Position numbers and translations under genes: made by a program. 64,000 nucleotides of DNA, from the IMG/VR virus record IMGVR_UViG_3300042691_017862. One strand, 5' to 3'. The DNA is from an uncultured virus (IMG/VR IMGVR_UViG_3300042691_017862) (lineage: Duplodnaviria; Heunggongvirae; Uroviricota; Caudoviricetes). Below the pieces are notes generated by a model. The model did not search any database. It saw nothing but the letters and a program-made list of their open reading frames with translations, and had not been told where the DNA came from. Position 1 is the stretch's first letter, and each line of letters opens with the position of its first letter. Shown in pieces: positions 1 through 18,849 of the stretch.

Positions 1-24
1 GACTACTCAATGGATAGCCAATAG

Positions 25-66
25 TTATCCACCAACTTATCCACCAGATCGTAGAGTTATCCACCA
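25..66 (+). repeat. Three direct repeats TTATCCACCA (DnaA-box-like) near the window start
   Basis: TTATCCACCA at 25-34, 37-46 and 57-66; further TTATCCA at 139 and 156; first 9 nt differ from the DnaA box TTATCCACA at one position. Confidence 0.7.
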
Positions 67-206
67 GATGAGGGAGCATGGGGAATATCAATGAGATTAG
101 TTTAGTGATAGTCTACTTCTATCATCTATGATTATCATTTATCCATTCATTTAGTTTATCCATCTTTTTAGTTGACACCTCATCTGGTCTACTATATATA
201 GATGCA

Positions 207-311
207 ATGAAACACATCATTATTAGTTTACTTATATCGTTTGTCACTCTTTTCGCTGTAATGGCTGCCACGCAGCGTTTTGCTAGTATACTCGTGTCAA
301 TGCCTCACTAA
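207..311 (+). CDS. Small hydrophobic 34-aa protein, possibly leaderless
   Basis: Hand-translated MKHIIISLLISFVTLFAVMAATQRFASILVSMPH*; TTGACA(172)-17 bp-TATATA(195-200) ends 6 nt before the ATG. Confidence 0.4.
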   Translation: MKHIIISLLISFVTLFAVMAATQRFASILVSMPH

Positions 312-371
312 TCAGATCATGGGCTTAAATCGCCTTATAAAGCAAAGCCATTCAACTAATATCGTTGTGGC

Positions 372-477
372 TGTCTATTTTGTATACACTGTCTAAAGTC
401 TATACACTTTTTACCCTCAACTAATATCATTGATATGTAATGATTACGCTATGTTATAGCTTGGCACAGCCTATGCA
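372..477 (+). promoter_or_regulatory. sigma54-type promoter P1 with tandem upstream palindromic boxes
   Basis: TGGCAC-AGCCT-ATGCA at 462-477 (GG and GC 12 bp apart); boxes TGTCTATTTTGTATACA 372-388 and TGTCTAAAGTCTATACA 390-406. Confidence 0.8.
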
Positions 478-519
478 TTATTAATCTGTAACGGGGAGTT
501 AACCCGAGGGAGTTAGAAT

Positions 520-666
520 ATGAGTAAACAAGAAGCTGTTAATGAAATCAATTTATTGAAACAAAAAATGCTAAATGATAACTTGACTCAAATCGAATAT
601 AATCGCTGCCTAGTTGCATTGATTGCATTATATGAGTCTGCATTAAACCCAAAAGTAGAGGAGTAA
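520..666 (+). CDS. Early hypothetical protein (48 aa, below ORF-track cutoff)
   Basis: GGGAG SD then MSKQEAVNEINLLKQKML...; first gene after P1. Confidence 0.65.
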   Translation: MSKQEAVNEINLLKQKMLNDNLTQIEYNRCLVALIALYESALNPKVEE

Positions 667-670
667 TACA

Positions 671-859
671 ATGAAAACAGTTTATCAAGTTGGTTATAGT
701 TCAGACAACAATTGGGTATACTTGGCAGAGTCAACGCTTTCCGTTGAAGAGGCTCGCAACGAATTGCATAGCATTCTACGCGCCGAGTCGTGCTATCAAT
801 CGGAATGGTTGAATAATTTTAGATATGTTGAAACTAAATACATTGAGGAGATCAACTAA
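671..859 (+). CDS. Early hypothetical protein
   Basis: ORF track; GAGGAG SD. Confidence 0.7.
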   Translation: MKTVYQVGYSSDNNWVYLAESTLSVEEARNELHSILRAESCYQSEWLNNFRYVETKYIEEIN

Positions 860-1018
860 ATGAAACAGGTTGAGCTTGAAATGTGGACACTCAAATATCA
901 ATTTGATTCGTTGATGCGTCAACTAATGACATGTAACGACTCTACTAAACGAAAAGAGTTGCAGGAGTCAATGGCTTCGGTTACTCGTAAACTAGATAAG
1001 TTGAATAAGGAGAACTAA
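860..1018 (+). CDS. Early hypothetical protein (52 aa)
   Basis: GAGGAG SD; MKQVELEMWTLKYQFDSLMRQL...; abuts both neighbours. Confidence 0.6.
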   Translation: MKQVELEMWTLKYQFDSLMRQLMTCNDSTKRKELQESMASVTRKLDKLNKEN

Positions 1019-1240
1019 ATGAAATCACTTAAGAAAGAATTCCCAAATCAAGTATATTCGTTGAATGCGCCAGCCAGCTCATATTCAACTGAAATCCTTA
1101 AGTCTGAACTAAAATCGTTGAGACGCTGCTGGATGATCAACTTGAAATTAAATCACACTAAATCAGTTGATTCACTAATGAAGTGTATAAACGAAATTAG
1201 TGGAGAACTTAAACTAAGATCATCACAAGGAGTAAAGTAA
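1019..1240 (+). CDS. Early hypothetical protein
   Basis: ORF track; AAGGAG SD. Confidence 0.7.
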   Translation: MKSLKKEFPNQVYSLNAPASSYSTEILKSELKSLRRCWMINLKLNHTKSVDSLMKCINEISGELKLRSSQGVK

Positions 1241-1552
1241 ATGAATAACGTTGTATATGTAGACTTTAAACAAAAAGCGTTGAAACCATACAATAAACGA
1301 GAATCGTTGAAAACTAAATGGGATAGAGTTGATCAACTAGATAAGTGGATTACTTCAACGTTAACCATTAAACAATTTGATCAGTATACAAAATCAACTA
1401 ATTTCATGGTGCGCGCTCAATCTTTAAAAAAGATAACTAAATCATTTAAGTTGAACAAGCATGCAAGCGAAATGATTGACCTTATCAACGAAATTCGTTT
1501 AGAACAAAATACAATGGAAAAGGTTTACACTTCCAATGATGTGCCTTTTTAA
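1241..1552 (+). CDS. Early hypothetical protein
   Basis: ORF track; AAGGAG SD. Confidence 0.7.
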   Translation: MNNVVYVDFKQKALKPYNKRESLKTKWDRVDQLDKWITSTLTIKQFDQYTKSTNFMVRAQSLKKITKSFKLNKHASEMIDLINEIRLEQNTMEKVYTSNDVPF

Positions 1553-1631
1553 TAGACACTTGACTAAACTTTTGACACCTAAAAGGTCTCTATTCAAATA
1601 TAACGTCGTATAAGCTGGCACAGCACGTGCA
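1542..1631 (+). promoter_or_regulatory. sigma54-type promoter P2 with tandem boxes
   Basis: TGGCAC-AGCAC-GTGCA 1616-1631; boxes TGCCTTTTTAATAGACA 1542-1558 and TGACTAAACTTTTGACA 1561-1577. Confidence 0.8.
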
Positions 1632-1658
1632 ATATAGTAAGTCAGGAGATAACAAAAA

Positions 1659-2279
1659 ATGAAACAACTAATCAAACGCAAAAACAAATTTTCCAAAAAC
1701 ATCCACCACGTATTGAGCCTAGCTAATTCAACGGATTTCGTTGAGGGTGAGAAGTGGTATCGCGACGCTCGATTGTATAGTTTTGAACTATCAAAAAAGT
1801 ATGGCATTTCTTTTCGCAAAGTGTGCGCAATTCTCGCAGCGTTATCGCCAAGAAACAAGTGGCAACGAAACAAGGAAGATGCTGAAACGCTCATTCAAGA
1901 GTGTCTTGGTTTAATCCCTTATGGGAAATTTGCAACTTACGGCGCAATGGTAGACAAGGCGCGTAAAGTGTTTCATTCAAAAGTTGATAGTATCCAAACA
2001 ATGTTAAAAATTCTTAACGGTCAAAAAATTTCAGCTTTTTTCCTTAATATCTATGATTCTAATAGTCAATGTGTGACAGTAGATAGCTGGATTCAACTAA
2101 TTTCATTGGGCGAATACCTTGCGGTAGATAAACGACCGTCGTTGACTAAAACCGATTACAAGTTGATTGAGGAAACCATCAAAGAACTTGCCTCAACTAA
2201 AAAGGTTGCGCCTCCAGTAATGCAAGCTGTTCTATGGATTTCGTTTAAAAGAATGACGGAACAAAAAGATTTCAACTAG
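1659..2279 (+). CDS. Conserved phage protein with HhH-type DNA glycosylase-like features
   Basis: Motifs AALSPRNKWQRN, K-x-x-x-F, VTVDSW and MQAVLW resemble HhH-GPD-like phage proteins. Confidence 0.5.
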   Translation: MKQLIKRKNKFSKNIHHVLSLANSTDFVEGEKWYRDARLYSFELSKKYGISFRKVCAILAALSPRNKWQRNKEDAETLIQECLGLIPYGKFATYGAMVDKARKVFHSKVDSIQTMLKILNGQKISAFFLNIYDSNSQCVTVDSWIQLISLGEYLAVDKRPSLTKTDYKLIEETIKELASTKKVAPPVMQAVLWISFKRMTEQKDFN

Positions 2280-2432
2280 AAAGGTTTAATTTATGGAAAT
2301 GTTATATACTATTTACTTTTTTGATGGCACAAAAATTGATCTGAAAACTTCAGATAATGAAATTCACATTCTACTAGAAAAGTGTAATGATTCAATTGAA
2401 AGCATTGAATTAGCGTAAAGGATTTTAACTAA

Positions 2433-2627
2433 ATGAAATTAACTGAATTAAGGAAAATGGTTGAACTTGCACAAAATGGCACAAGAGAAGATAAACTATT
2501 AGTGTTTAATTACTTAATCGATCAAGTTGAATTAAATGAACAGTTAAATTTTGGTGAACGAAAATTGTTGAGCGCATTGCGCGACGAACTTTTAAATGAA
2601 AATTGTTTACTCCAAAAGTCGGACTAG
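2433..2627 (+). CDS. Early hypothetical protein
   Basis: ORF track; AAGGA SD. Confidence 0.6.
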   Translation: MKLTELRKMVELAQNGTREDKLLVFNYLIDQVELNEQLNFGERKLLSALRDELLNENCLLQKSD

Positions 2628-2652
2628 TTACCCGACTTCCTTTCAACGAATT

Positions 2653-2689
2653 CCGTTGATGCAAGAAATTGTGTCAACGGTTTTTGTTT
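2653..2689 (+). terminator. Rho-independent terminator
   Basis: CCGTTGATGCAA-GAAA-TTGTGTCAACGG followed by TTTTTGTTT. Confidence 0.8.
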
Positions 2690-2902
2690 ATTTAACTACT
2701 CAACTAAATTCGTTTAATGATTCAATGATTTTCGTTGAGCGTTTATTTTTCGATTTAAGGGCATGATCTTTTTTAGTGGTGGAAGTATTACTATTAAAAA
2801 AACTATCGGGAAATCGAAACGTCGCGCAAATTTTTGTATTATATCGTTGTCTAAACATATTTTGAAACTATACTATCAGAACTATACAAAAAACTCGGAA
2901 AG

Positions 2903-2993
2903 TGTAAAAAATATAGTCAATCGGCTAATTTTTACACACCGAAAACTTGTCAGACTCATTTTAAAGGTGTTACAGACTGGCATGGTGCATGCA
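2903..2993 (+). promoter_or_regulatory. sigma54-type promoter P3 with tandem boxes
   Basis: TGGCAT-GGTGC-ATGCA 2978-2993; boxes TGTAAAAAATATAGTCA 2903-2919 and CGGCTAATTTTTACACA 2922-2938. Confidence 0.75.
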
Positions 2994-3025
2994 TTATATA
3001 ATATCAGAAAAGGTAGGAAGTAAAA

Positions 3026-3325
3026 ATGAATAAAACAGAAGTAAATGTATACTATTTGAATATAAACGGACTATTCGGAAGAAACCGAAAAGTTAAACGA
3101 GAAGTGTTTAGTCTTATTGAGAAACCTTTTGATGCGCCGATTTTAGGAGAAGATGCGCTTGACTTACTGGTATCAATGAAATTAAATGATATTAAACTAA
3201 AATACGGTAAAGCTAGTGTTACAATGAATAAAGTTACAATAGAAAACGATAATGGTATAATCATTAGAAGTCAATTACTTCACTTTAATGTTGCGCCGAT
3301 CAAAACTTATGAAATCAAACAATAA
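3026..3325 (+). CDS. Early hypothetical protein
   Basis: ORF track; directly downstream of P3. Confidence 0.7.
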   Translation: MNKTEVNVYYLNINGLFGRNRKVKREVFSLIEKPFDAPILGEDALDLLVSMKLNDIKLKYGKASVTMNKVTIENDNGIIIRSQLLHFNVAPIKTYEIKQ

Positions 3326-3341
3326 AAAGGAGAAAATAAAA

Positions 3342-3536
3342 ATGAATAAAGTAAATACAACGAAAAAGGTTTATCAAGTGTGGCGTAATGTTCCATCATG
3401 GACAAAAAAAGGTGAAACGGAAAGCATTGTATATAAAGAATGCGAAACGCTTACAGATGCTGGATATTTTCAATTTGAACTAATTAAAGCCGGAAATGAA
3501 ACTTGGCTACAAATTGTCGAAAATATTAACAAGTGA
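3342..3536 (+). CDS. Early hypothetical protein (likely start MNKVNT)
   Basis: AAGGAG SD precedes ATG at 3342, within ORF 3288..3536. Confidence 0.65.
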   Translation: MNKVNTTKKVYQVWRNVPSWTKKGETESIVYKECETLTDAGYFQFELIKAGNETWLQIVENINK

Positions 3537-3604
3537 CCAAAACTTAGACACTCTTTTAAGCTCATTTCAATTATAACACTGTTAAACTTGGCATGCAGCA
3601 TGCA
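3515..3604 (+). promoter_or_regulatory. sigma54-type promoter P4 with tandem boxes
   Basis: TGGCAT-GCAGC-ATGCA 3589-3604; boxes TGTCGAAAATATTAACA 3515-3531 and TGACCAAAACTTAGACA 3534-3550. Confidence 0.8.
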
Positions 3605-3649
3605 ATATATACTAATAACAATAGGCGATAAGCCGGAACGGAATGAAAC

Positions 3650-4390
3650 ATGAATACTGAAATCACGACACTAGACACGAAACTCGAAACACTATCAAAT
3701 AAATACAAGGTGGCATCAACTAAAGCCATTGCGCAAAAATTTAAAGATTTAGGGTTTACTGTAGATAAGTATCAAGAGGCAAAAGTTAGACGCGCATCTA
3801 AAAAAGGATACCAAAAGCATCTTGTAACATTGTCAAACGACACGCTATTAGGTGGAACTAAAAACGGAACTAAATTGCAAGTGTTAGTCACTAATAGTCA
3901 TGATGGAACTTCTAGTCTAGTTATCCAATTGGGAGTCTATCGCTTTGCATGCGCTAACGGCTTAATTGTAGGCGAAACTTTTGAAAAAATTAATATTCGA
4001 CACACTGGAGATATTGTCGAAAAAATTGAAGAGAATGTAATGAGAATCGTTGCACAAGCGAATCGATTGAATGATGTACTTGAAAAAATGAAATCGACAC
4101 AACTTGACGCGGAAAAAACACGAGAATTTTTTGATCGTGCGGTAAAATTGCGATACGAGAATAAAACATCAAGTGACGTGGAAATTCCAGTATTGCGCGA
4201 AGCCGATGAAGGAAACAATGTATTCAACCTTTTTAATAGAGTACAAGAATCGTTGATTCGTGGTGGACAAAAGGCAAAAAATAAACGCGGAAATCTGAGA
4301 ACAGTTAAGGAAGTAACGTCAATTGATACTCTTAAGCGTATTAATGAGGGTTTATTTGATCTAGCCGTAGAATATTCAAACGCGGCATAA
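3650..4390 (+). CDS. DUF932/DUF945-family phage/plasmid early protein
   Basis: Signature NSHDGTSS...GVYRFACANGL...IRHTG and FNRVQESLIRGG. Confidence 0.8.
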   Translation: MNTEITTLDTKLETLSNKYKVASTKAIAQKFKDLGFTVDKYQEAKVRRASKKGYQKHLVTLSNDTLLGGTKNGTKLQVLVTNSHDGTSSLVIQLGVYRFACANGLIVGETFEKINIRHTGDIVEKIEENVMRIVAQANRLNDVLEKMKSTQLDAEKTREFFDRAVKLRYENKTSSDVEIPVLREADEGNNVFNLFNRVQESLIRGGQKAKNKRGNLRTVKEVTSIDTLKRINEGLFDLAVEYSNAA

Positions 4391-4415
4391 TTTCCTAATA
4401 GAGAGTATTTAAACG

Positions 4416-4456
4416 AAGTCCGTTGACCTGCTGGGTTGACGGGCTTTTTTGTTTTT
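4416..4456 (+). terminator. Rho-independent terminator
   Basis: AAGTCCGTTGACC-TGCTG-GGTTGACGGGCTT then T tract. Confidence 0.75.
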
Positions 4457-4589
4457 AAACGCTTGAAATTCCCTTGATGCAATTACCCTAGTCTTCCTTT
4501 TCATGGTCAGAAATCGAAACGTCGCTCAAATTTTTGGGCATTATAGAACACTTTAAACGCGCTTTAAAATGTCTTATAAAACACCATAT

Positions 4590-4680
4590 TGTAAAAAGTT
4601 TAGACACCTGTATACTATTTACATACCTATCCTGTATTATCTCGAATATAAGCGGCGCACAGCTTGGCACAGTCAATGCA
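4590..4680 (+). promoter_or_regulatory. sigma54-type promoter P5 with tandem boxes
   Basis: TGGCAC-AGTCA-ATGCA 4665-4680; boxes TGTAAAAAGTTTAGACA 4590-4606 and TGTATACTATTTACATA 4609-4625. Confidence 0.8.
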
Positions 4681-4724
4681 TTATAGTAATACAAGAACGG
4701 TAAGCAAGCCGAACGGAGAATTAA

Positions 4725-4868
4725 ATGCTATACACATTATTATATACATGCAAAGATTGTAACTTACAATGGGAAGACATTTTCGAAGAAAAGTATGGAG
4801 AATGTGATGATGAATGTGAAAATTGCGGAAAAGCAATGACACCTATTAAAAATGAATGGAGAAAATAA
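4725..4868 (+). CDS. Small zinc-ribbon-like protein (47 aa)
   Basis: Hand-translated MLYTLLYTCKDC...ECENCGK with two CxxC pairs; GGAG SD; first gene after P5. Confidence 0.6.
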   Translation: MLYTLLYTCKDCNLQWEDIFEEKYGECDDECENCGKAMTPIKNEWRK

Positions 4869-4869
4869 A

Positions 4870-5166
4870 ATGAAACGTATTATCACAATGAATATGGGAA
4901 AAGGTGAAATGATTCGAATGGTTTTTCACAATGATTCCGGTCACGAATGGTTATCATGTAAAAAGAAACTATTAAATGATCTAGGTTTATCGGAAAAGAT
5001 TAGTGCATTTTCTTATCAAAAGGGAAAAACTGCATACTTAGAAGGAGATCTTGACGCTCAAATTTTAATCGAAAAGTTAATGCAAGAAAATTATTCTTTT
5101 TTAATAGTTGACGGCGCATATCGTAGAAGCTCACCTATTAGAAATTACGAAAGGTTTACAAAATGA
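4870..5166 (+). CDS. Conserved phage early protein
   Basis: Motifs DSGHEWL and SYQ...AYLEGDLDA resemble a recurrent small phage family (DPGHGWL...YLEEDCDA). Confidence 0.55.
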   Translation: MKRIITMNMGKGEMIRMVFHNDSGHEWLSCKKKLLNDLGLSEKISAFSYQKGKTAYLEGDLDAQILIEKLMQENYSFLIVDGAYRRSSPIRNYERFTK

Positions 5167-5429
5167 GTGAAGAAAATTTTACAGTGTTTACAGCCAAAAA
5201 AACTTTTGATACTTCACTCGGTACAATTCGAGTATATTCTAAAAGCGACGGAATGACAATAGGAAGCGCGGAAAATGAAATAGATGCTTTACTTGATGCA
5301 TTAAAGTACAAGGAACAAAGACAACGATATTATCAAAATAAATACAATAATCTTTTAAAAAGACTCGAAACGGCACAACTTGTATTGTTAGAAGAAGTTA
5401 ACGAACATTGTGATTGTAAAGAATATTAA
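5163..5429 (+). CDS. Hypothetical protein
   Basis: ORF track; ATGA overlap with upstream gene. Confidence 0.65.
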   Translation: MSEENFTVFTAKKTFDTSLGTIRVYSKSDGMTIGSAENEIDALLDALKYKEQRQRYYQNKYNNLLKRLETAQLVLLEEVNEHCDCKEY

Positions 5430-5441
5430 GGAGAAAAAGAA

Positions 5442-5669
5442 ATGAATAATACAAAAACAAAAGGTACAGTAAAATGGTTTAACGACGCAAAAGGATACGG
5501 CTTTATTAGTACAGAAACGATCAACGATATTTTTGTACACTATAGCGCAATTATAACCGACGGGTTTAAGACACTATCAGAAGGCGAAACGGTAGAATTC
5601 GAATTGAAGCTTGACAAAAAAGGAAGTCCGCAAGCTTGGGAAGTGACAAAGGAACAATATGAAGGATGA
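5442..5669 (+). CDS. cspA: Cold-shock domain protein
   Basis: [15 protein letters not shown] (RNP1), DIFVHYSAI (RNP2), [13 protein letters not shown]. Confidence 0.95.
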
Positions 5670-5801
5670 AATGAATTTAGTTGAATTAGAAGCTCACCTT
5701 GTAACACTCGAAGGGTACGCGCAAAAAAGCTTACCCGACGATATTAAAGAAAAACTAGAAACTGAAATAGCATTTTGGAAAAAAGAACTGGAGAAAATTA
5801 A

Positions 5802-6020
5802 ATGAAAAAATCACACAGTATTGCATTAGGTGAATATTTAAGCTGGTATGATGAAAGTCTAACATATAACGACATTGTGCATGCATTATACAATAACAAT
5901 GAAACAATGGAAAAAATAACAATATGGGAACCTTTTGAATACAGTCCAACGGAATTCGTTGCAGAACAAATCGAGTCTTTAGTTAGAAGTATTGAATCAA
6001 ATTATGGAAAAGAGGAATAA
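5802..6020 (+). CDS. Hypothetical protein
   Basis: ORF track; GGAG SD. Confidence 0.65.
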   Translation: MKKSHSIALGEYLSWYDESLTYNDIVHALYNNNETMEKITIWEPFEYSPTEFVAEQIESLVRSIESNYGKEE

Positions 6021-6189
6021 AACAATGAAAATTAAAAGCGCAACAATCGGAAATAATACATTGACAATGAAATCACATCAAGGCATTTATTATATATTGC
6101 ACAATGACTTGTGTGTAACGAATTCAGTTGAGTACAAATATATCAGCGATCTTTTCGACAAATTTTTGACTCAACTAAAAGGATAGAAT

Positions 6190-6453
6190 ATGAAACAAAT
6201 TGACTTGAATAGCTTATTACGAGATATTGAAATAAATCATATTAGAACAGCATTGGAACACACAGAAGAGAATGTTGCCAGTGCTGCTAAATTATTAGGA
6301 TTAAAAAGGACAACATTAATCCGTAGAATATCAGTATTAAATATACAAATGAATAGACCGAAAAGGACTTACATTCCTGAAGAAAAGTCTATTAATAATC
6401 CTTTTCTTGTTCGACACAAAAACAATATTGAAGACGATCTGTGGAATGAATAG
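6190..6453 (+). CDS. Stand-alone Fis-type (HTH_8) DNA-binding protein resembling a bEBP C-terminal domain
   Basis: IDLNSLLRDIEINHIRTALEHTEENVASAAKLLGLKRTTLIRRI matches the E..I..AL....GNV..AA..LG..R.TL pattern; no AAA+ domain. Confidence 0.85.
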   Translation: MKQIDLNSLLRDIEINHIRTALEHTEENVASAAKLLGLKRTTLIRRISVLNIQMNRPKRTYIPEEKSINNPFLVRHKNNIEDDLWNE

Positions 6454-6529
6454 ACACTTGACTAAACTTTAGACACTTAAAAAGTGCCAGCTCGAATATG
6501 ACTCACATAGAGGTGGCACAGCTCATGCA
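6440..6529 (+). promoter_or_regulatory. sigma54-type promoter P6 with tandem boxes
   Basis: TGGCAC-AGCTC-ATGCA 6514-6529; boxes TGTGGAATGAATAGACA 6440-6456 and TGACTAAACTTTAGACA 6459-6475. Confidence 0.8.
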
Positions 6530-6555
6530 ATATAGTAATACAGGAGAATGATGAA

Positions 6556-7230
6556 ATGCAAAAACTAGAAACATCAGTAAAATTAAAGCAACTTCTTTTA
6601 GACATCGAACTTGATTATATTAATCGAGCATTACATACAACATCAGGTATGGTTCAAAATGCTGCTAATCTATTGGGAGTAAAAAGAACAGCTCTTTCTA
6701 TGAGACTAGCTTTTTTTGGTGATAAAATCATTATGCCAAAAAAAATTAAAACTATTACTAAAAAAGAAATTATAGCACAAGAAAGAAAAAAAAGAATGCA
6801 AGAAAGGAGAATTGCAAAAGAAGCGAAAATACTAGAAAATGAAAAAATGCGGATTGAAAGGGAAGAAAAAAGAATACTAAAAGATCAACTAAAAAAAGAA
6901 AGTTTGGAATTATTATCAAGTAAAAAGACAAAAAAAGAACTGGAGCAATACATTCCTTTACCGTTTAATCCAGTTGACAAAATTAGGTATAATGATTGGA
7001 CTAATAAAGATACTTATTTGTGTGCCTGTGCAATTGAAAATATGACAGAGCATTTTATTAGAAAAGTTATTTTAATTGCGAGAAGTGATCAAGGGATTAA
7101 CACCAAAAAAAGAATATTGAATGTTTTAGCTGAAAGTGGTAGCACAGATAAGTTTAAAGTAGTCAATGTAAATTTTAATGAAATCGCAAACGAATATAAG
7201 AATGTAAAAATTAAGCTTAGAATAAGATAA
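6556..7230 (+). CDS. Fis-type HTH protein with coiled-coil and C-terminal domain of unknown function
   Basis: LKQLLLDIELDYINRALHTTSGMVQNAANLLGVKRTALSMRL then K/E-rich coiled coil; directly downstream of P6. Confidence 0.8.
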   Translation: MQKLETSVKLKQLLLDIELDYINRALHTTSGMVQNAANLLGVKRTALSMRLAFFGDKIIMPKKIKTITKKEIIAQERKKRMQERRIAKEAKILENEKMRIEREEKRILKDQLKKESLELLSSKKTKKELEQYIPLPFNPVDKIRYNDWTNKDTYLCACAIENMTEHFIRKVILIARSDQGINTKKRILNVLAESGSTDKFKVVNVNFNEIANEYKNVKIKLRIR

Positions 7231-7740
7231 TAAAAGGAGAATGAAAAAATGAAAGTAACTTTAGAACTAACAGAAACACAAGCTTGGACATTGACAGAGA
7301 TCGTATCTCAATTTGTTGATGAGCTTGGAACTGATTCCGATTTAGTAGATGATGGAGCAAAGCTTTACGAGCTTATTATTGACGCAAGAAGTAAAAAGGA
7401 GAATGAATAATGAAATATCCAATTGTATACAAGCAACTAAAATTGTTGATCAAGATTTGGGAAAAGCACGGAGGCGATGATAAAGAAGCCGTGATTAAAA
7501 TGATGAAAGAATCAATGAAAGAAATCGAACAGCAAATGAACTTTGAGGATTAAATGAACTATAAAATTGAAATACACAAAGCATCAAACGGTAAAAAAGG
7601 GTATGTTGTAATGATCGATTTTTTCCAAGATACCAGAAGCAAATATGCGGCAACATACTGCGTCAATGTTTCAACAAAAAAGGAAGCTAAAGAATGGGAA
7701 CAAAAAAACAAAGAGTGGTTAAGAAATACCGCTCGAAACT

Positions 7741-8013
7741 TTGTGGGAGTCTAAAATGAAAAGCGGAACACTAAAATTTAAGAATGAGCCAATTGATCTA
7801 GGTGACGTTACGTATTACGTAAATGGAGAAGCTAGATTCATTGTAGACAAAAACTATGGAGCAGATGCAGACGGCAATAGAGGACACACAGCGACGTGGT
7901 TTGAACTAGATGACGTTGAAATACTAGACGAGAACAAAAAAGAAGTAATGGTATACAAAGAACAGGCTGCGGTATTAGATTATATCGAAAATAACTGGGA
8001 GAATTTCACATGA
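7741..8013 (+). CDS. Hypothetical phage protein
   Basis: ORF track; motif NYGADADGNRG. Confidence 0.6.
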   Translation: MWESKMKSGTLKFKNEPIDLGDVTYYVNGEARFIVDKNYGADADGNRGHTATWFELDDVEILDENKKEVMVYKEQAAVLDYIENNWENFT

Positions 8014-9551
8014 TCATTCTTGTAACTATTGTCGCATTGATGCTATTCTTTTTCGAGGATATGATCAGACTAACAAAGCTATTAACACTAATAGCAATCG
8101 AAGTAACTAGATTCTTAATTGTTTATGGAACTTTACCAGCTATGTTTTATCTAGCTGTAAAAATGAAAGGGTAGAATATGAAAACACGAGTAGAATTCAC
8201 ATATGATCAGATCGACGTCATCGCAACGGCTTACGTACTATCGTCAGGATTAGTCACGAGACTAAACTTGTACTATCCAGAACTAGACGAAACGGATTAC
8301 CCAACAAGCAAAAAGTTGGTAGAGGATATTAAAGAAACTGCAGAGATTCTTTTGCTAGAAGAGAATTCTACACCGGAGGTAACTTTCTATGACTAGCTTT
8401 GACAAAGAATGGTTACTTTTACTATTAATCCCGCTTTTCTTTTTACAAATGAGCCGACCATCTATTTCAAAAGAGAAGCCCAATTGTTTTCCAGATTATA
8501 GGTATCCGTATGGATGCATGAGATTTGAAAAGCTACCTTAAAGGAGTATTATGATTGTAATTACTAAAATGAAAGACAATACATACAGCGTATCCAATGG
8601 TCAAGAACTAGTCAATGACCAGTCTAAGCAACTAGCAACGGCTAAATGCTTTTGGGAGTACGGAATTAGACGAGATATAATCGACAATGCTTTTAGTACA
8701 ATGGAGAAATACAAAAACGATATGATAGTATTCTTCAATGATTCAGAATATACAACAACAAAAGTTGACTATAGTAATGTATACAAATAACTATGTCAAA
8801 TCATTTTTTCGACAAAAGTCCGTATGTAAACTATCCTAGTAGAATCTCTAATAGCTTTGTATTACATCATCACAATAAATTATTACGAAATAGCTTGACT
8901 GAGACTTTGAAGGATGAGTATAATGGAAGAAGGACAAGGATATGTACGAGCAGTGTGCGAGTACATACAGTCTATCAAAGCTATTGGCTTACGACTGCTT
9001 GTAATTATTAGGCGTACTAGATCGGAATCGAGTACTTGATATAGATCGTAGCTATCAAATAGCTATGTAATAGAGGAGAAGACTATGACTACTTATAGAT
9101 GCTCAATGTGTAATAAACTAAAGTCAGCAAAGAACCTTGTGTATAAAAACTGGGAGTATGATAGGAAGCCAGAAGAAACAACGCTTGTTGGTATATGCAG
9201 AGGTTGTAATGCGACAATGAAAAAGCTTGACGTTGATAGTGTTTTGTATTTCCTAGAAATGCGTGGTGAAAGATGAGTCTATTTTATAATCTAATTGAAG
9301 ACGAAAAGAAGTACACAAAAGAGATGCGCGGCAAAACTGTATCCAGTACTGTATTTAATGACGACAATGATTTAGTCATTAGATTTACTGATAAGACAGA
9401 GTATGTTATCTGTGGTATCATGGAAAAAGGAGTAGTAGTCGTAAAAGCTATTACAGAACAGGAGATGTTATTTTAGAACTAATTATAGGACTTGTAATAT
9501 TAGGATTGACTTTAGGTGTATTAATTGAGAAGTTATTAAAAGGAGTTAAAG

Positions 9552-9989
9552 ATGAGTAAGAAGAAAGCTGTAACAAAGAAGCCTGTGACTAAAAAAGCAA
9601 CGACAAAGAAGGCTACTACTAAAAAGGTAACGCCAGTCACTTCTCTAAAGAAGAATCCAGTTGCTGAGATTACGATGACAGCAACACCATTGGACGAAGC
9701 AGCATTGCAAGCTAAGTATCAAGAATGCGGAGAAATTCTAGAGCAAGTTTACAATGCTATTACTTTGGCTTTGACTATTTCAAGCGAGTACGACCACAAA
9801 GAACCAATTGAGATTGTTCAGTATGCTTTAGACCAGTACAAAGAGTTTACGAGTCTCTCACCAGAAGAAGTAGCTACACTTCAAGCAGAGAGTGGCGATC
9901 TATTACGACAATTGGAAGAAGCATTTCCAGAACTTGAAATCACAGAGAAGCCTACTCAAAGTAAACCAAAGAAAGAGTTACTAAACTAA
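9552..9989 (+). CDS. Protein with histone-H1-like lysine-rich N-terminus and acidic C-terminal part
   Basis: KKAVTKKPVTKKATTKKATTKKVT repeats; AAGGAG SD. Confidence 0.65.
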   Translation: MSKKKAVTKKPVTKKATTKKATTKKVTPVTSLKKNPVAEITMTATPLDEAALQAKYQECGEILEQVYNAITLALTISSEYDHKEPIEIVQYALDQYKEFTSLSPEEVATLQAESGDLLRQLEEAFPELEITEKPTQSKPKKELLN

Positions 9990-10267
9990 TGAAAAAGGTT
10001 AAAGAAACTATCGTTAAAAAAACTGATGCAGTTCATCTAATGGGACTTGGTACGTCAGTTACTGGGACTTGTTCGGATAAAGTTGGAATGATTTATATTG
10101 GATCGTTAAAGAAACAACAGAAACTACGCACAAAAGTTCGTAACAAAAACATTGACGAAGATAGTATTGCAAGTTACATTTTATTCTGTAGTATTGAATC
10201 TGTGAATCAAATGATTGATAATTTGAACGAGATTAAAAAAGGAATGAAGAAGAAAAGGAAATAGATT

Positions 10268-10651
10268 ATGCTAGAACTCTTTACCATCATTGCAAATAAA
10301 GTTGGAGTCAATGTATCTATTCTCATTTCTATCTGTACAGTAGAAACAGGACTTAGAAACGTAAACAATTTCAACGACGCAAATGGTAGAGGAAGTCTAG
10401 GTATATGTCAAATGAGCGTAGATGCAGCAAGAGAAGTGCTACCACACGCAGATGGATTGGCATTACAACAAGTTCCGGTTAACGTAAAAGTAGCCGCGCT
10501 CTATTTAAAGAAGCTAGAGAAACGGTATACTTACTTTCCTCATTACATTGCTGCTTATAATATGGGACACGTAAAGCTAAATAGAGAAGGTAATCTAGTT
10601 AATCAGGCTTATGTGAATAAGGTGTTAGCTATTAGTAATACTTATGACTAG
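10268..10651 (+). CDS. Lytic transglycosylase (SLT domain)
   Basis: Catalytic E in VETG; GICQM; AAYNMG; YVNKV motifs. Confidence 0.85.
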   Translation: MLELFTIIANKVGVNVSILISICTVETGLRNVNNFNDANGRGSLGICQMSVDAAREVLPHADGLALQQVPVNVKVAALYLKKLEKRYTYFPHYIAAYNMGHVKLNREGNLVNQAYVNKVLAISNTYD

Positions 10652-11344
10652 AATCAAGTACACAAAGGTACAAGACTACATGGTATCTCAGAAGTTCCTT
10701 TGTAATAATAGGATGGTTCAAATAGTTTTGTATCCTGATAAGTTAAGATACGACATTGATACAGCAGAAGGAACGTTGAAAACTGGGATAGCAAATACAT
10801 TGACTTCTTTAAAGAAGAAAGCTAAATTAGCAGCTAGGGAACTTGGAGCTAGTTTCTTAGACGAAATTCGTAACAGAGGTAAAACGGAGAGGTTTAAAAT
10901 ATGACAACAGGTAAACTTTATAAGCATTCTAAATGTATTGATGTAGCTTTTTGTCCAGAACGTATTGAAGAACTCGGTGGTGGTTTTGTATGCACTGGTT
11001 ATTGGTGGCGTGTTGGTAATAACACAACACCTAAACTATTAGAACTTGATACAATAGCCATTGGAAATATGGACATTGATCAATGGGAATTGTATGAAGA
11101 ATAACAAGCAGCAAGTAGTTGATTGGCTCATTAATAATGATGAACTAGTACGCGACATCATTAGAAAGACTAATGAGCATATCAAGGACGTTGACAGAGA
11201 ATTCATGGACGAAGCTAAGGATCAACAAGTGGATGAGATTACTAGAAACTTGTCAGATGAAATAGGGAGAAATCTAGGGTTGACAGGCGAAGATTTAGTG
11301 GGTAATATAGATAAAGAGACTTTGAAAAAGTTTTTGGAGGTGCT

Positions 11345-11797
11345 ATGAAGTATAAAGTTGGAGATAAAGTACGAGTTAAGAGTGACTTACAAGTTGGAGA
11401 AACTTACGGTTCTAATACTTTTATTGAAAGTATGGCGAATCATTTTGGACAAGGGGCAATAATTACTGAGATTGATGAGGGTAATGGATATATGCTTGAT
11501 ATAGATGAAGCGTGTAGATATACAGAAGAAATGCTTGAAAAACCAATTCTTGCTGTAAATTATGATGGGAGTCTAAATTTAGACGCAAAAGAAGATCTAA
11601 TTAATAATCCAAAACATTACACAACAGGTGGAATCGAAACAATTGACTTCATCGAAGCTAAAAATCTAAACTTCAGACTAGCTAATGCAGTGAAGTATCT
11701 AACACGCGCTGAACATAAAGGCTCTAAGCTTTCTGATTTGAAAAAAGCTATTTGGTATATCCAAAGAGAGATTGATAAGAGCGAGAGTGCTGAATGA
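11345..11797 (+). CDS. DUF3310 (T7 gp1.7-like nucleotide kinase) domain protein
   Basis: INNPKHY..GGIETIDFI...NAVKYLTRA.HK...DLKKAIWYI. Confidence 0.85.
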   Translation: MKYKVGDKVRVKSDLQVGETYGSNTFIESMANHFGQGAIITEIDEGNGYMLDIDEACRYTEEMLEKPILAVNYDGSLNLDAKEDLINNPKHYTTGGIETIDFIEAKNLNFRLANAVKYLTRAEHKGSKLSDLKKAIWYIQREIDKSESAE

Positions 11798-12671
11798 GTA
11801 GTCACGAATCTAGTTGTGGTTATTGGGTGCTATTAATTTGTACTTGTGGTAAAAGAAAATGATTATTTTAAAAATTTTATATGGTATTTTTCTTGTATTA
11901 TTTTTTTGTGCCGTAATATCAGGAATTGATGATTTTGATTCAAATAAAGGTGTTCCAAAAAAGAAATCGAAGTGAAAAATGATTGACCTATTAATTACGT
12001 CATACAAAGCCCAATGTTCATGGGTAAGCCGTCGTATTCTTAATGAAAGAAAACGACTCGATTTTATCTGGACAGTAGACTTTATCCTACGAAAAGTAAA
12101 CGCAGGATTAGTAACACCAAAACAGGTACAAAAAAAGCTAGAAGATGTTCAAGACTTCTTAGGAAAGAATGAAGCGTTTGACATTTACAAAGAAACATAT
12201 GATAATCTAGAGAAGAGATTTGAGAATGGATACAGTAACTCAGATCCAATAGAGAGGATTGCATGAGACCACAAGACGAAGACTTTGAGAACGGCAGAAG
12301 CTACGGTATTGAAGAACTTACAAAGAAGCTAGAACAATATGCGTCTAATAGTAACGATAGTAGAATCATTGAGGTGATTTACAATGCTTTGTATCATGTT
12401 ACAAAGGATAAGAAATGAAGAAGACAAAGAAGATTCGACCACATAATATAGATGGTATTTACGTATTATCCAAAGATAAAAAACTATCACCATATAGTAG
12501 ATCAGATAATACTGTCATCGATGTTACGATGAAAGACATAGAACGAATCTATTTGTATTCTAAACAAAGAGAAAAAGAACTAAATAAAAAATACAAGACA
12601 AATCCATTAGGAATATTTGTTGTAAGACTAAGTGAAGATGTTCACTTTATTGTGGATAATCGGAGAAAGAA

Positions 12672-12848
12672 ATGAAAAAGCTATTACTTTTTTGTATGTT
12701 ATTAAGTGGATGCAATGAATATGAATCTACTTACGATGGCACTCGATGTCATAAAGCAATTGAGAATTATTGTGGAGTTCATATATGGCAATGTGAAAAT
12801 GGTAAAGAATATATTTGCGTCACAAATTTTGCCGGAGTTGAACAATGA
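12672..12848 (+). CDS. Small Cys-rich lipoprotein (58 aa)
   Basis: Hand-translated MKKLLLFCMLLSGC-NEY...; lipobox LSGC; ATGA overlaps at both ends. Confidence 0.7.
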   Translation: MKKLLLFCMLLSGCNEYESTYDGTRCHKAIENYCGVHIWQCENGKEYICVTNFAGVEQ

Positions 12849-13111
12849 TCAAGAAGAATATCCTTATTGCAATTACTACACTAGAAAACAAGTCAGAAGA
12901 AACTGTACTAGAACTCAAGTCTACTAACGATCGCACAGAGATTGTATTAGAGCCTAGACTTACAAAGCTAGTACTGAACATTGATGAGCTAAAAGATGCT
13001 ATTAAAGAGGTTGAGAACTTCTCTATTGCTAATCCTAGTGAAGCGCAAAAAAAGCAAGTTGAGGTAGTAGAAAATTCAATGATTGTTGAAATTGGTGTTG
13101 ACGACGAGTAG
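12845..13111 (+). CDS. Hypothetical protein
   Basis: ORF track; ATGA-coupled to upstream lipoprotein. Confidence 0.65.
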   Translation: MIKKNILIAITTLENKSEETVLELKSTNDRTEIVLEPRLTKLVLNIDELKDAIKEVENFSIANPSEAQKKQVEVVENSMIVEIGVDDE

Positions 13112-13126
13112 ATGATTTGATAGACT
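13098..13126 (+). promoter_or_regulatory. sigma70-type promoter upstream of structured RNA and nrdJ
   Basis: TTGACG-17 bp-TAGACT; predicted start coincides with the RNA closing stem at ~13132. Confidence 0.7.
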
Positions 13127-13131
13127 ATATA

Positions 13132-13274
13132 TGTGAAGAGTTGGCAAGCTGTGGCATTAGGTTCGTAGCGTATATAAGACCACTAGAAGCACACTATCTG
13201 CCCACCTAATAAAAGGTGTTAGAGGTTCCGTGCGGCAGACGTTGGGACACCAGATTCGCAATCTGCTCTTCACA
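13132..13274 (+). ncRNA. Structured tRNA-like RNA / 5' leader of nrdJ
   Basis: Closing stem TGTGAAGAG/CTCTTCACA; T-arm-like CAGA-TTCGCAA-TCTG stacked on it; internal stems CTGTGG/CCACTAG and TCTGCCCAC/GTGCGGCAGA. Confidence 0.65.
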
Positions 13275-13300
13275 AAATTTTACAACAAAGGAGAAACAAC

Positions 13301-15073
13301 ATGACATTTAAGCCAACAGGATTTTCTGAAACAATCTTCAAAGATAGATATGCTCTTACATCTTCAGAATCGTGGACAGAAGCTTGTCTTCGTATTGCTA
13401 GTCAAATGGCATTAGCGGAACCAGTGGAAAAACGCGCTCATTACGAATCTACATTCAATGAAATTCTAGTCAATAACCTATTCGTTCCGGGTGGTAGAAT
13501 CTGGTACAATTCCGGTCGTAACAATCCACAACTATTAAATTGTTTTGTATTAACTAATCAACTTGACTCTAAAGAAGGCTGGGGAGAAGTAGCAAAGCAA
13601 ATGATCGTTACTTCAATGACTGGTGGTGGATGCGGTATTGACTTCAGTGATGTAAGACCTCGCGGTGCTCTCATTGGTGATCAAAAGGGAGAATGCCCCG
13701 GCCCTGTAGAATTGATGCGCCTTGTTGATAATTGCGCAAAACCTGTACGAGCTGGTGGACAAAGACGAGTGGCTCTTATGTTTTCACTTGACGCTGATCA
13801 TCCAGACATTGAAGAATTCCTAGACGCAAAACTTACTAAAGGTGAACTTACTCATGCAAACGTATCTATCAGATTGAAGAATGCTAATAAGTTTCAGAAA
13901 GCAGTACAAGAAGACGGAGAATGGGAACTGAGCTGGAAAGGCAAATACAAAAAGACAATCAAAGCCAAAGATCTTTGGAACAAGATTGTTAAGAATGCCT
14001 ATAACAGTGCAGAACCCGGACTTCTTAATTGGGAGATGATTGAAAATGAAAGTAATATCGGATATATTGAAGAATTGGTCACAACTAACCCTTGCGGGGA
14101 AATTGCTCTTAGTTCTTATGACTGCTGTTGTCTTGGTCATGTTGTTCTCCCTCGATTCGTATCAAATTCAACGATCGACTATGCGAAACTTGCTGATACT
14201 GTACGGACTGGCGTTAGGTTTCTTGATAACGTACTTTCAGTTAATAGCTATCCTCTTCCGGAAATGAAAGAGAAGTCACACAAATTGCGCCGTATTGGAA
14301 TGGGCACAACTGGACTTGCTGATACACTAGCTATGCTTGGGCTAAAGTATGGTTCAGAAGAAGGTAACAAGTTTATCGACAAACTATACAAATTCATTGC
14401 TAAAGTTGCGTATGAATCTTCTGTAATGCTTGCTGTAGAAAAGGGAGCATTCCCAGCTTGTAAACCAGAGAAGCACATTGAATCAGGATTCATGAAAAGA
14501 ATGCCACATAAGATCCGCTCATTAGTTAAAGAACACGGTATTAGAAATTGCGCTATTCTTACACAAGCTCCTACTGGTACTGTATCTATTCTTAGTGGTA
14601 ATTGTTCTAGTGGTATTGAGCCAATGTTTAGCCCAGCATATGAACGCCGTTACTGGGACAAAGACGTTCGTAAAACAGAACTTGTATTTCATCCTTTGTT
14701 TGAAGAATTTATGAAGGATGGAAAAGATGTAACTCACTTTGTCGGAAGTCATAATATCTCAGTACAACAACATATGGAAGTACAAGCAATTGTGCAGAAG
14801 TGGGTAGACAACGCTGTATCTAAGACTATTAACATGGCTAATGATTACTCAATGGATGACATGGAAAAGCTTTGGTTAGAATATTTACCTAGACTTAAGG
14901 GTACTACGTTCTATAGAGATGGAACTAGAGGGTATGTAAGAGAAGACGGTACAGTGGAAGAACCACCATTAAAGTCCTTGACAATCGAAGATGCTATGGT
15001 AAAATTCAAAGAGAAGCATTCTACTGGGCTTGAGTTCGTGGACGATTGCCCCGGCGGTGTGTGCAGCCTGTAA
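13301..15073 (+). CDS. nrdJ: Class II (adenosylcobalamin-dependent) ribonucleotide reductase
   Basis: PGGR, LLNCFV, GGGCGIDFS, TNPCGEI, RRIGMG, APTGTVS, C-terminal CPGGVC; no adjacent beta subunit gene. Confidence 0.9.
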   Translation: MTFKPTGFSETIFKDRYALTSSESWTEACLRIASQMALAEPVEKRAHYESTFNEILVNNLFVPGGRIWYNSGRNNPQLLNCFVLTNQLDSKEGWGEVAKQMIVTSMTGGGCGIDFSDVRPRGALIGDQKGECPGPVELMRLVDNCAKPVRAGGQRRVALMFSLDADHPDIEEFLDAKLTKGELTHANVSIRLKNANKFQKAVQEDGEWELSWKGKYKKTIKAKDLWNKIVKNAYNSAEPGLLNWEMIENESNIGYIEELVTTNPCGEIALSSYDCCCLGHVVLPRFVSNSTIDYAKLADTVRTGVRFLDNVLSVNSYPLPEMKEKSHKLRRIGMGTTGLADTLAMLGLKYGSEEGNKFIDKLYKFIAKVAYESSVMLAVEKGAFPACKPEKHIESGFMKRMPHKIRSLVKEHGIRNCAILTQAPTGTVSILSGNCSSGIEPMFSPAYERRYWDKDVRKTELVFHPLFEEFMKDGKDVTHFVGSHNISVQQHMEVQAIVQKWVDNAVSKTINMANDYSMDDMEKLWLEYLPRLKGTTFYRDGTRGYVREDGTVEEPPLKSLTIEDAMVKFKEKHSTGLEFVDDCPGGVCSL

Positions 15074-15087
15074 CAAAGGAGAATTTT

Positions 15088-15462
15088 ATTACAAGAATCA
15101 ACGTAGTCCCTACCGCAGAACTTACGACCAAACATTTAGTAGCTGAGTACAGAGAAATCACAAGACTTCCAAACAATTTACGTCAATCCCTATCTCGTGC
15201 AAAACCTTTTAGTATGTCAGAAATTCCTACTACCTATGTATTAGGAACCGGACACGTAAAGTTCTTCTACGATAAAATGCTATTTCTACAACGTCGCTTT
15301 GAAGATCTAGTTAACGAAATGTTATCTAGAGGATACAACCCTACATACAGAGATAGTAGTATCTTCATTCCAGAAAACAAGGTATTCTACAATGACTATG
15401 TTCCAACAGAAGAAGCAATGAGACTTAATAGAGCGCGTATTAGTGAAAGGTTGGGATTATGA
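15088..15462 (+). CDS. denV: Pyrimidine-dimer DNA glycosylase (T4 endonuclease V family), probable ATT start
   Basis: TRINV...ELTTKHLVAEYREITR, YVLGTGHVKFFYDK, EMLSRGY; AAGGAG SD 6 nt before ATT at 15088. Confidence 0.9.
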   Translation: MTRINVVPTAELTTKHLVAEYREITRLPNNLRQSLSRAKPFSMSEIPTTYVLGTGHVKFFYDKMLFLQRRFEDLVNEMLSRGYNPTYRDSSIFIPENKVFYNDYVPTEEAMRLNRARISERLGL

Positions 15463-15875
15463 AAGTAAAGATTAAAAAGCTACATCAAGACGCTGTTATT
15501 CCTAGCTATGCAAAGAAAGGCGATGCTGGACTTGACCTAGTAGCTGTAAGTGTGCTATACAAGCACGATCAAGTTGTATATGATACAGGATTAGCATTTG
15601 AAATACCAGAAGGTCATGTTGGTCTATTATTCCCACGTAGTTCTATTTGTAAAAAGTCCTTAACACTTAGTAACTCAGTAGGAGTATTGGACTCTGGTTA
15701 CCGAGGTTCTGTTAAGTTTGTATTCAATGTTTATTCAAAAGGTGATATATATGGAATAGGAGAACGAGTTGGGCAGCTTTTGATTGTACCATATCCAACG
15801 ATTGAACTAGAGCAAGTTGATGAACTAGACGAAACAGAGCGCGGCTCCGGCGGTTTTGGAAGTAGTGGGAAATGA
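15459..15875 (+). CDS. dut: Trimeric dUTPase
   Basis: AGLDL, PRSS, GVLDSGYRG, GQL, RGSGGFGSSG motifs. Confidence 0.95.
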   Translation: MKVKIKKLHQDAVIPSYAKKGDAGLDLVAVSVLYKHDQVVYDTGLAFEIPEGHVGLLFPRSSICKKSLTLSNSVGVLDSGYRGSVKFVFNVYSKGDIYGIGERVGQLLIVPYPTIELEQVDELDETERGSGGFGSSGK

Positions 15876-16150
15876 AGCACGTATCTTGTAACAAGTGCAA
15901 GTGGGTTCACTTTGAAGTAAGTCTAGACTACTGTAAAAAATGGGAAGACGAATGGAAAACCTATTACAAGAACCTAAATGCAGAAGGTAAAAAAGCATAC
16001 GGATTAAAATCAGCACCTAAAATAGAAGACGAATACTTAAACTGTAGTCGTTGTAATAATACGTATACAGACTTCCACGATAGTACAGATGACGAAGTAC
16101 CTAATGGAAGTACTATTGGACCAATTCTAAATAGACAAGAAAGTCTTTGA
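15872..16150 (+). CDS. Hypothetical zinc-binding protein
   Basis: CNKC and CSRC pairs. Confidence 0.6.
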   Translation: MKHVSCNKCKWVHFEVSLDYCKKWEDEWKTYYKNLNAEGKKAYGLKSAPKIEDEYLNCSRCNNTYTDFHDSTDDEVPNGSTIGPILNRQESL

Positions 16151-16175
16151 CATCCTATTTCTTTTGTATTATCCT
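16147..16175 (+). promoter_or_regulatory. sigma70-type promoter
   Basis: TTGACA-17 bp-TATCCT. Confidence 0.6.
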
Positions 16176-16192
16176 ATTAACGAGGTGATGAT

Positions 16193-17918: not shown

Positions 17919-17921
17919 TTC

Positions 17922-18846: not shown

Positions 18847-18849
18847 CAC

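Follow-up and report, generated by a model that had tools for sequence, protein, structure and literature searches.

Promoters of the sigma-54 type cannot fire without an ATP-driven activator, and some of these activators are restrained by protein anti-activators, FleN acting on FleQ, PspA on PspF and NifL on NifA. Here we analyze a 64,000-nucleotide stretch of DNA from an uncultured virus of the Caudoviricetes (IMG/VR record IMGVR_UViG_3300042691_017862), called the window below, in which two open reading frames (ORFs), ORF1 and ORF2, flank the last of six sigma-54-type promoters, P1-P6. Both encode a helix-turn-helix (HTH) domain of the kind found in enhancer-binding proteins and neither encodes the ATPase. 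We tentatively propose that they act as decoys at the sites of a host activator. Like FleN, PspA and NifL, they would then serve as an off switch for an enhancer-binding protein while not belonging to that class themselves; but while those proteins bind the activator itself, ORF1 and ORF2 would compete for its DNA site with a DNA-binding domain alone.

Other described proteins share parts of this arrangement. The Fis site is a 15-base-pair (bp) G...C element with an AT-rich centre, and Fis of Escherichia coli, like the Fis-like protein PA4853, resembles ORF1 in having the HTH_8 fold, a small size and no ATPase. In Fis, however, which is about 98 residues long, an N-terminal arm and dimerisation helices come first and the HTH last, whereas in ORF1 the HTH is N-terminal and followed by a disordered tail. 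FleQ of Pseudomonas aeruginosa has an N-terminal domain and an AAA+ domain, both of which ORF1 and ORF2 lack. Its consensus site GTCaNTAAAtTGAC is an AT-centred GTC-N8-GAC dyad (PMC6120874), similar to the boxes upstream of the phage promoters; the dyad in the boxes has one base more. FleQ has sigma-70 promoters among its targets too (PMC3424551, PMC10723142). The PilR consensus TGT-N11-ACA (PMC8035640) fits the phage boxes, in which the GTCT elements named in PMC6058289 are found as well. Among phages, YuA of Pseudomonas combines a single sigma-54-like promoter with others that are sigma-70-like or phage-specific (PMC10914365); it shares the promoter type, and the available portion of that paper reports neither enhancer mimicry nor HTH-only proteins. 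The converse case is Htm (Gp204) of Mosigvirus AV110, a phage protein made early and related to enhancer-binding proteins, which alters host transcription (bioRxiv 10.64898/2026.10.06.757011): Htm keeps the AAA+ domain and has no GAFTGA loop and no HTH, whereas ORF1 and ORF2 keep the HTH alone. A limited keyword search of open-access text found no description of phage mimics of enhancer-binding proteins that consist of the DNA-binding domain only.

A preliminary description of this DNA had read ORF1 and ORF2 as HTH proteins without an AAA+ domain, and our domain searches bear this out. For HTH_8 (PF02954), where Pfam sets the cut-off at 22 bits, ORF1 scores 38.3 over residues 10-47 (E=1.1e-9) and ORF2 22.2 over residues 16-51 (E=1.2e-4), barely enough; Sigma54_activat (PF00158) is matched by neither. 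Outside the HTH, both ORFs either are too short for such a domain or differ from it in composition. Lacking the AAA+ domain that defines the class, they are not enhancer-binding proteins. The two are 37% identical over the HTH domain, and the sole homolog of ORF2, P0006 (48% identical), carries a precomputed PF02954 match. In the AlphaFold2 (AF2) model of ORF1, helices at residues 6-24, 29-36 and 40-50 have a predicted local distance difference test score (pLDDT) above 90, while the tail stays at 53-58; the predicted three-helix fold can be superimposed on the DNA-binding domains of Fis and NtrC. Foldseek matched this model to the DNA-binding domains of Fis, NtrC4, NtrC1, ZraR and NtrX, with probability 1.00 for Fis, NtrC4, NtrC1 and 2m8g and a root-mean-square deviation of 1.8-2.3 Å over 52-57 columns, the E-values being merely 0.02-0.2 because the domain is tiny. 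The N-terminus of ORF2 is modelled like the HTH of ORF1; its C-terminal region has AF2 pLDDT below 50, and the Atlas gave no usable match to it (TM at most 0.42).

The ORF1 family is rare, with about 16 clusters, and an index of 5.8 billion proteins held four proteins for ORF1, itself included. An exhaustive profile search returned 2,642 HTH_8 matches; when the 19 best were aligned, 16 showed the full layout: the HTH at the N-terminus, then a basic linker whose length varies, and NN(I/V/L)E..L(W/Y) at the C-terminus. Where a disordered tail ends in a conserved peptide, that peptide usually serves to bind a partner. The tail motif of ORF1 is probably a short protein-binding motif, which suggests that ORF1 is probably more than a passive competitor. 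ORF2 has no tail motif of this type. In PHROGs there were weak matches to unannotated families only, and among 185,579 species genomes 31 pattern matches yielded no confirmed prophage copy of the family.

The six promoters are all intergenic and have the form TGGCAY-N6-TGCAWTAT. Allowing one mismatch, the pattern TGGCAYRNNNNNTGCAWTAT matches the window six times, always on the + strand and between 462 and 6533, compared with 0.01 matches in shuffles. Since that pattern was derived from the six sites, the textbook consensus TGGCACNNNNNTTGCA is a fairer and less circular test; with up to two mismatches it gives 18 matches where 12.0 are expected, a number reached by 4 of 100 shuffles. A position weight matrix scan of the 64 kb found, beyond P1-P6, no site that scores near them, and both the pattern and the matrix scans agree with the earlier account in making P6 the last of six.

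Each of P2-P6 is preceded by a tandem pair of imperfect 17-bp dyads that lie 19 bp apart and stop about 38 bp short of TGGCA. In an alignment of the window with the related phage contig L006 their consensus is TG(T/A)nnAAWnTWTAGACA. The box ends TG and CA are kept in 17-20 of 20 boxes, G at position 2 and C at position 16 in 19 of 20 each; the ±7 spacing is known from Fis and NtrC sites. The idealised dyad TGTCTAAAnTTTAGACA, of which TGTCTAAAGTTTAGACA is a perfect example, has the core GTCTAAAnTTTAGAC, that is, GTC-N9-GAC. With up to three mismatches it occurs five times in the window (1.2 expected; none of 100 shuffles reaches five), each time upstream of one of the P-series promoters. The stop codon of ORF1, TAG at 6451-6453, falls inside the distal box of P6, and ORF2 is the first gene after that promoter, just as had been described. 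The coordinates are collected in Table 1. As a separate observation, TC(A/G)AATATAA stands about 13 nucleotides upstream of each TGGCA in P2-P6; many promoters of the candidate hosts introduced below show CTAAG a few bases past the box instead.

Table 1. Features of the ORF1/ORF2 region and of promoters P1-P6, in window coordinates.
Feature	Position	Strand	Remarks
P1 sigma-54-type promoter	462..481	+	box 390-406
P2 sigma-54-type promoter	1616..1635	+	proximal box 1561-1577; TAGACAC of distal box 1553-1559
P3 sigma-54-type promoter	2978..2997	+	two degenerate boxes
P4 sigma-54-type promoter	3589..3608	+	proximal box 3534-3550
P5 sigma-54-type promoter	4665..4684	+	distal box 4590-4606
ORF1	6190..6453	+	87 residues; HTH_8, then disordered tail; final gene in the P5 unit
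ORF1-family C-terminal motif NNIEDDLWNE (family NNIEDxLW)	6421..6450	+	in 16 of 19 aligned; invariant in alignment A3
P6 distal box TGTGGAATGAATAGACA	6440..6456	+	equals ORF1 codons L-W-N-E-stop
P6 proximal box TGACTAAACTTTAGACA	6459..6475	+	one mismatch to the idealised dyad
AT-rich element CTCGAATATGA	6491..6501	+	consensus TC.AATATAA, between boxes and -24; P2-P6 alignment, two phages
P6 -24/-12 element with conserved extension TGGCACAGCTCATGCAATAT	6514..6533	+	core TGGCACAGCTCATGCA at 6514-6529
ORF2	6556..7230	+	224 residues; first gene after P6; HTH_8 16-51, K/E-rich helix 69-121, C-terminal region

Where could a promoter module of this kind come from? Searching the 185,579 species genomes for AGACA-N37-40-TGGCAY-N6-TGCAWTAT gave 81 matches against about 69 expected by chance if equal base use is assumed. 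The four loci with the highest box scores were L107, L167, L113 and L106. By record title L107 is an uncultured Halobacteriovorax, L106 a Bacteriovoracaceae metagenome-assembled genome (MAG) and L113 a Lysobacteraceae MAG; L167, titled as a Sulfitobacter MAG, is nearly identical to L107. Further matches lay in records of Bacteriovorax, Halobacteriovorax marinus and Bdellovibrio, and the extended promoter TGGCAYN6TGCAWTAT occurs one to four times per genome in these genomes, against none for the reversed control. We then take as the host-order sample 41 genomes of the order to which G004 belongs. With up to one mismatch, the idealised dyad is found there 283 times, while its control gives 6; it is present in 40 of the 41 genomes, with up to 22 copies in one genome. 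TTAGACA-N35-65-TGGCAY-N6-TGC has 70 matches, spread over 32 of the 41, and its control has none, a few promoters being counted twice in the 70 because of tandem boxes. Genomes of Kluyvera, Peribacillus and Leptospirales have no dyad, and a Bdellovibrio genome has two. This enrichment of dyad and promoter in one predatory order makes the order that holds Bacteriovoracaceae, Halobacteriovorax and Bacteriovorax the probable phage host, and the phage cassettes probably copy a promoter module native to it; judged from sequence, this is the best host lead.

All 20 host sites that we sampled have the full dyad, often with a second box about 20 bp further on, as in the phage, and in all 20 the downstream ORF starts like a signal peptide. 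Of 16 such downstream ORFs scanned, 13 match no Pfam family, the others being PLD-like phospholipase, Lnb_N/DUF7844 and ankyrin. In several genomes of the order, exported peptides of 56-65 residues (a signal peptide, then for example GE..K.EC...Q..RA) are encoded immediately behind a box and sigma-54 promoter, at L176, L175, L177, L174, L184, L281 and L290; the peptide of L281 was scanned and matches no Pfam family. As a further side observation, perfect TGTCTAAAnTTTAGACA dyads of host genomes (L254-L269; G014, G030) are mostly single and intergenic, several of them just after terminator-like hairpins.

With the ORF1-family profile we find, in each of four host-order genomes, one orthologous activator with REC, Sigma54_activat and HTH_8 domains, 504-551 residues long and scoring 38.2-39.2 bits, one of them being encoded at L206 6769-8280; all other HTH_8 proteins of the four genomes, bar one, score 25.7 bits or less. 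ORF1 and this candidate host activator are 42-52% identical over 44-50 residues by BLASTP. Moreover, its helix NRTTLIEKMKKK matches KRTTLIRRI of ORF1 and NRTTLVEKM of the ORF2 homolog in the more distant phage contig L091, while the remaining HTH_8 proteins there have a different helix sequence in each of the four host-order genomes. In both genomes annotated, the gene order is metK, the candidate activator, a large TPR protein, a 314-residue AAA-HTH protein, flgB, flgC, fliE and fliF, with fliG also in the cluster in G003. The receiver domain (PF00072) of the candidate is of the usual kind, and among the domain matches listed for this protein there is none to the FleQ domain. PilR-type promoters were tried as a source of the module and rejected, as none of 30 pilin-motif loci in five host-order genomes has box and promoter upstream.

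A sigma-54 activator of the phage's own was not found in the approximately 68 kb covered of a genome of about 78 kb. The single AAA protein of the window (37502-38458) is of the classic PF00004 type with no GAFTGA in its translation, PF00158 is absent from the 76 other window ORFs scanned, and the ORF lists of L005 (3.8 kb upstream of the window) and of the left arm of L006 (5 kb) hold no activator-sized ORF.

How close are the two phage proteins to FleQ itself? Against solved structures, the ORF1-family profile A5 ranks FleQ (8p53_C) first of 25 (E=4e-7; 33.3 bits), with the helix IRRTTLVEKM beside KRTTLIRRI of ORF1. The margin is small, a Fis-like protein scoring 31.4 bits, another match 28.3 and ZraR 27.6, and with ORF1 alone as query FleQ is not listed at E of 1 or below. 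In NCBIfam the top ranks are PrdR, DhaR, NtrC and Fis, all far below their cut-offs (22.2 bits against 99 for the Fis model, with the HTH from ORF1 residue 10). Thus the resemblance to FleQ/FlrA that had been suggested earlier holds for the HTH and stops there, since nothing of the FleQ architecture accompanies it; ORF1 and ORF2 are HTH_8 members, and are neither FleQ/FlrA members nor Fis proper.

We propose the following mechanism. The phage would head its six early units with the host promoter module, two tandem TGTCTAAAnTTTAGACA-type dyads before TGGCAY-N6-TGCAWTAT; as these are copies of the host module, a host enhancer-binding protein would bind the dyads and fire P1-P6. P5 would then yield ORF1 and P6 ORF2, each a FleQ-like DNA-binding domain with a (K/N)RTTL recognition helix. 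As dimers without an ATPase they would occupy these dyads in the phage genome as well as in the host chromosome, displacing or blocking the activator, so that the early promoters are turned off as infection proceeds. The same binding would silence the host regulon of exported proteins, and the tail motif of ORF1 could engage an additional partner. We hold this decoy, or anti-activation, reading of ORF1 and ORF2 with slightly less than even confidence; going by the sequence evidence, competitive binding is the likeliest mechanism. We favor it because it explains why activator-type HTH-only genes are paired with activator-type sites, and why they lie early. A bolder form, in which a lytic phage of predators bases all of its early programme on the host sigma-54 system and then uses a new, activator-derived family of ATPase-less, tail-bearing proteins to capture or switch off the activator and so seize the regulon of exported proteins, possibly one for prey attack, we regard as doubtful, though worth stating.

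A number of observations weigh against the decoy reading or against the host and activator that go with it. The GTC...GAC palindromes to which the boxes had been likened are present as imperfect dyads, with N9 where FleQ has N8, and their left half is far less conserved than the right half TAGACA. Of 16 perfect host dyads, 14 have no sigma-54-like promoter within 160 bp (among 16 other best host dyads, five have a sigma-54-like site), so the dyad-binding factor may have roles beyond that of an enhancer-binding protein, or may not be one in the first place. The factor binding perfect host dyads may also act at other kinds of promoters; the action of FleQ at sigma-70 promoters would fit the many host dyads without a sigma-54 promoter nearby. 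FleQ is a flagellar regulator, whereas the sampled targets behind host boxes are exported proteins: the flagellar connection drawn in the preliminary description survives in that the candidate activator adjoins a flagellar cluster, while none of 16 downstream host genes is flagellar and all 20 sampled are of the exported type. No box with up to two mismatches lies near the candidate activator gene; a second activator, present in G003 only (L189), scores 37.4 bits and is not separated from the favored group by BLASTP; in other phyla there are activators that share 45-55% identity with the HTH; and LGLKRTTL is present in many non-flagellar activators. The remaining 10 kb or so of the phage genome could encode an activator. 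As to the host, a Lysobacteraceae-titled MAG holds five dyads, the phage cold-shock protein is closer to those of Kluyvera and Peribacillus (55-57%) than to those of the candidate hosts (46-52%), and comparing window positions 1-20000 with 151 genomes of the order gave no spacer-like DNA match. Lastly, the decoy model leaves the tail motif of ORF1 unexplained.

The related phages add to this list. L006 has an ORF1 homolog (67% identical) and all six promoters with their boxes, the spacers varying at P5 and P6 while the conserved box halves stay; it has no ORF2, the place after P6 being taken by a repeat protein, and an extra XRE-like gene precedes ORF1. In L091, the sigma-54 promoters carry boxes of a similar kind and the ORF2 homolog is part of an operon; ORF1 and P6 are both absent. 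The circuit is therefore not self-contained in the sense proposed at first. The promoter type and at least one HTH-only protein do occur together in three of three related phages, which are kin rather than independent cases, and neither gene is fixed among them. Phages carrying the genes without the boxes had been named in advance as evidence that would count against the idea, and for the ORF1 family two are seen: L084 and L007, of another lineage, have ORF1-family genes with the tail motif and no promoter array or boxes, L084 being a 49-kb record, 87% complete, with one weak promoter-like match. The function of the family thus cannot depend on phage boxes. Overall we regard the preliminary interpretation as partly supported, the idea of feedback through a closed circuit aimed at flagella being in part contradicted.

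Among the alternatives, the one that survives best is that ORF1 and ORF2 are ordinary regulators, generic small HTH repressors or nucleoid-type proteins with other sites, whose likeness to activators reflects shared HTH_8 ancestry. HTH_8 is a broad family in which FleQ, the Fis-like protein and ZraR differ by a few bits, ORF2 hardly clears the Pfam threshold, and other viral contigs have unrelated small HTH_8 proteins without sigma-54 promoters. Nevertheless we think this unlikely, since the (K/N)RTTL helix matches one host activator group and not the other HTH_8 proteins there, the box geometry is that expected for HTH_8 dimers, and the surroundings of ORF1 and ORF2 yielded no further repeat that could be an operator.

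It is also conceivable, if rather improbable, that ORF1 and perhaps ORF2 are adaptors or co-activators, which use the tail to tether the host ATPase activator, sigma-54 or RNA polymerase and redirect it, for example from the early units to a leftward late operon. Such a role would suit a tail that ends in a motif kept across most of the aligned family, behind variable linkers and in a region predicted to be disordered, as is typical of partner-binding peptides, and the leftward sigma-54-like sites do carry upstream repeats different from those of P1-P6, found together with the promoter in 0 of 41 host-order genomes. But those repeats (TTATCCACC, three copies) look like DnaA boxes rather than enhancer sites, ORF2 lacks the motif, and L091 has the leftward sites and no ORF1.

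A solely host-directed role, in which the two proteins reprogram or silence the chromosomal dyad regulon with no part at phage promoters and the position at P6 is incidental, gains from the box-less phages of the ORF1 family, which are without sigma-54 promoters too, and from host genomes with up to 22 near-perfect dyads each, but we give it a low probability, as proteins that bind host dyads would be expected at the near-identical phage boxes too, including the one that overlaps the ORF1 stop codon.

If the bolder form of the decoy reading is right, the hijack-then-block transcription circuit would be undescribed, and the tail peptide would mark a new contact between phage and host proteins. 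HTH-only copies would be a simple and portable off switch for promoters of this kind, one also able to silence a host regulon. More generally, early units that all stand behind sigma-54 promoters tie infection to the physiological state of the host, and our results suggest that predators of the Bacteriovoracaceae type have in common a sigma-54 regulon made up of exported proteins. The virus would be a large phage for a host group with very few known phages; a brief literature search on phages of that group found only passing mentions of 'bdellophage'. The analysis leaves concrete items to work with: a 17-bp site, six promoter cassettes, two candidate binders, and a candidate host order and activator.

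We now turn to the wider setting. The window is phage DNA, with dense small + strand ORFs (33-40% G+C) followed by replication genes and then by - strand tail genes, and we assign it to an uncultured virulent phage, with a genome of about 78 kb, as its early arm. The exact ORF1 protein is encoded on contigs as long as 77,691 bases. Megablast of window positions 5000-9000 and tblastn with ORF1 found no cultured relative, let alone close cultured kin; only distant helicase matches came up in the search.

To the left of P1, three copies of TTATCCACC lie at window positions 25, 37 and 57, with TGGATAG inverted at 11-17 and more TATCCA in L005 at 3799-3975. We presume these to be DnaA-box-like, and the cluster, which lies between leftward and rightward units, is possibly the replication origin of the phage. 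Sigma-54-like sites that overlap and face each other (TGGCATAGATCCTGCTATAGCA...TGCCA, and TGGCACGAATCTTGCT on the - strand) are found at L005 3721-3780 and L004 651-710, both just upstream of window base 1, and again in L006 around 4660 and in L091 at 5678-5711, and are thus conserved in three phages. They point to a gene for a 188-residue protein and, in L006, onward to an HNH gene and a terminase-like gene; the leftward sites, which have no TAGACA-type boxes, may drive a late operon. Their repeats were considered as a host enhancer and rejected, given the absence of the repeat-promoter combination from the host-order genomes and the DnaA-box-like sequence.

Several observations concern other genes. 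Homologous proteins of 216-234 residues, made of degenerate GNAWVYGDAQVSGD-type repeats, are encoded in L006 (10309-11013) and L084 (8935-9585) and share the C-terminal KRSxLKTITRKKAIELGLP; the gene is the one that takes the place of ORF2 after P6 in L006, and its L084 counterpart stands two genes ahead of the ORF1-like one. In both box-less phages a gene a short way upstream of the ORF1-family gene (L007 9255-9605, L084 8601-9014) encodes what by eye is a DksA/TraR-like C4 zinc-finger protein. Within the window, the family-B DNA polymerase is seemingly split into ORFs at 28949-30487 and 30684-31403 with a small ORF in between, and an HNH-AP2 endonuclease gene (31400-31909) follows directly, the whole spanning 28949-31909. 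A glycosyltransferase-9 (heptosyltransferase-like) gene overlaps a methyltransferase gene at 35411-37002, which hints at a host with a heptose-containing envelope.

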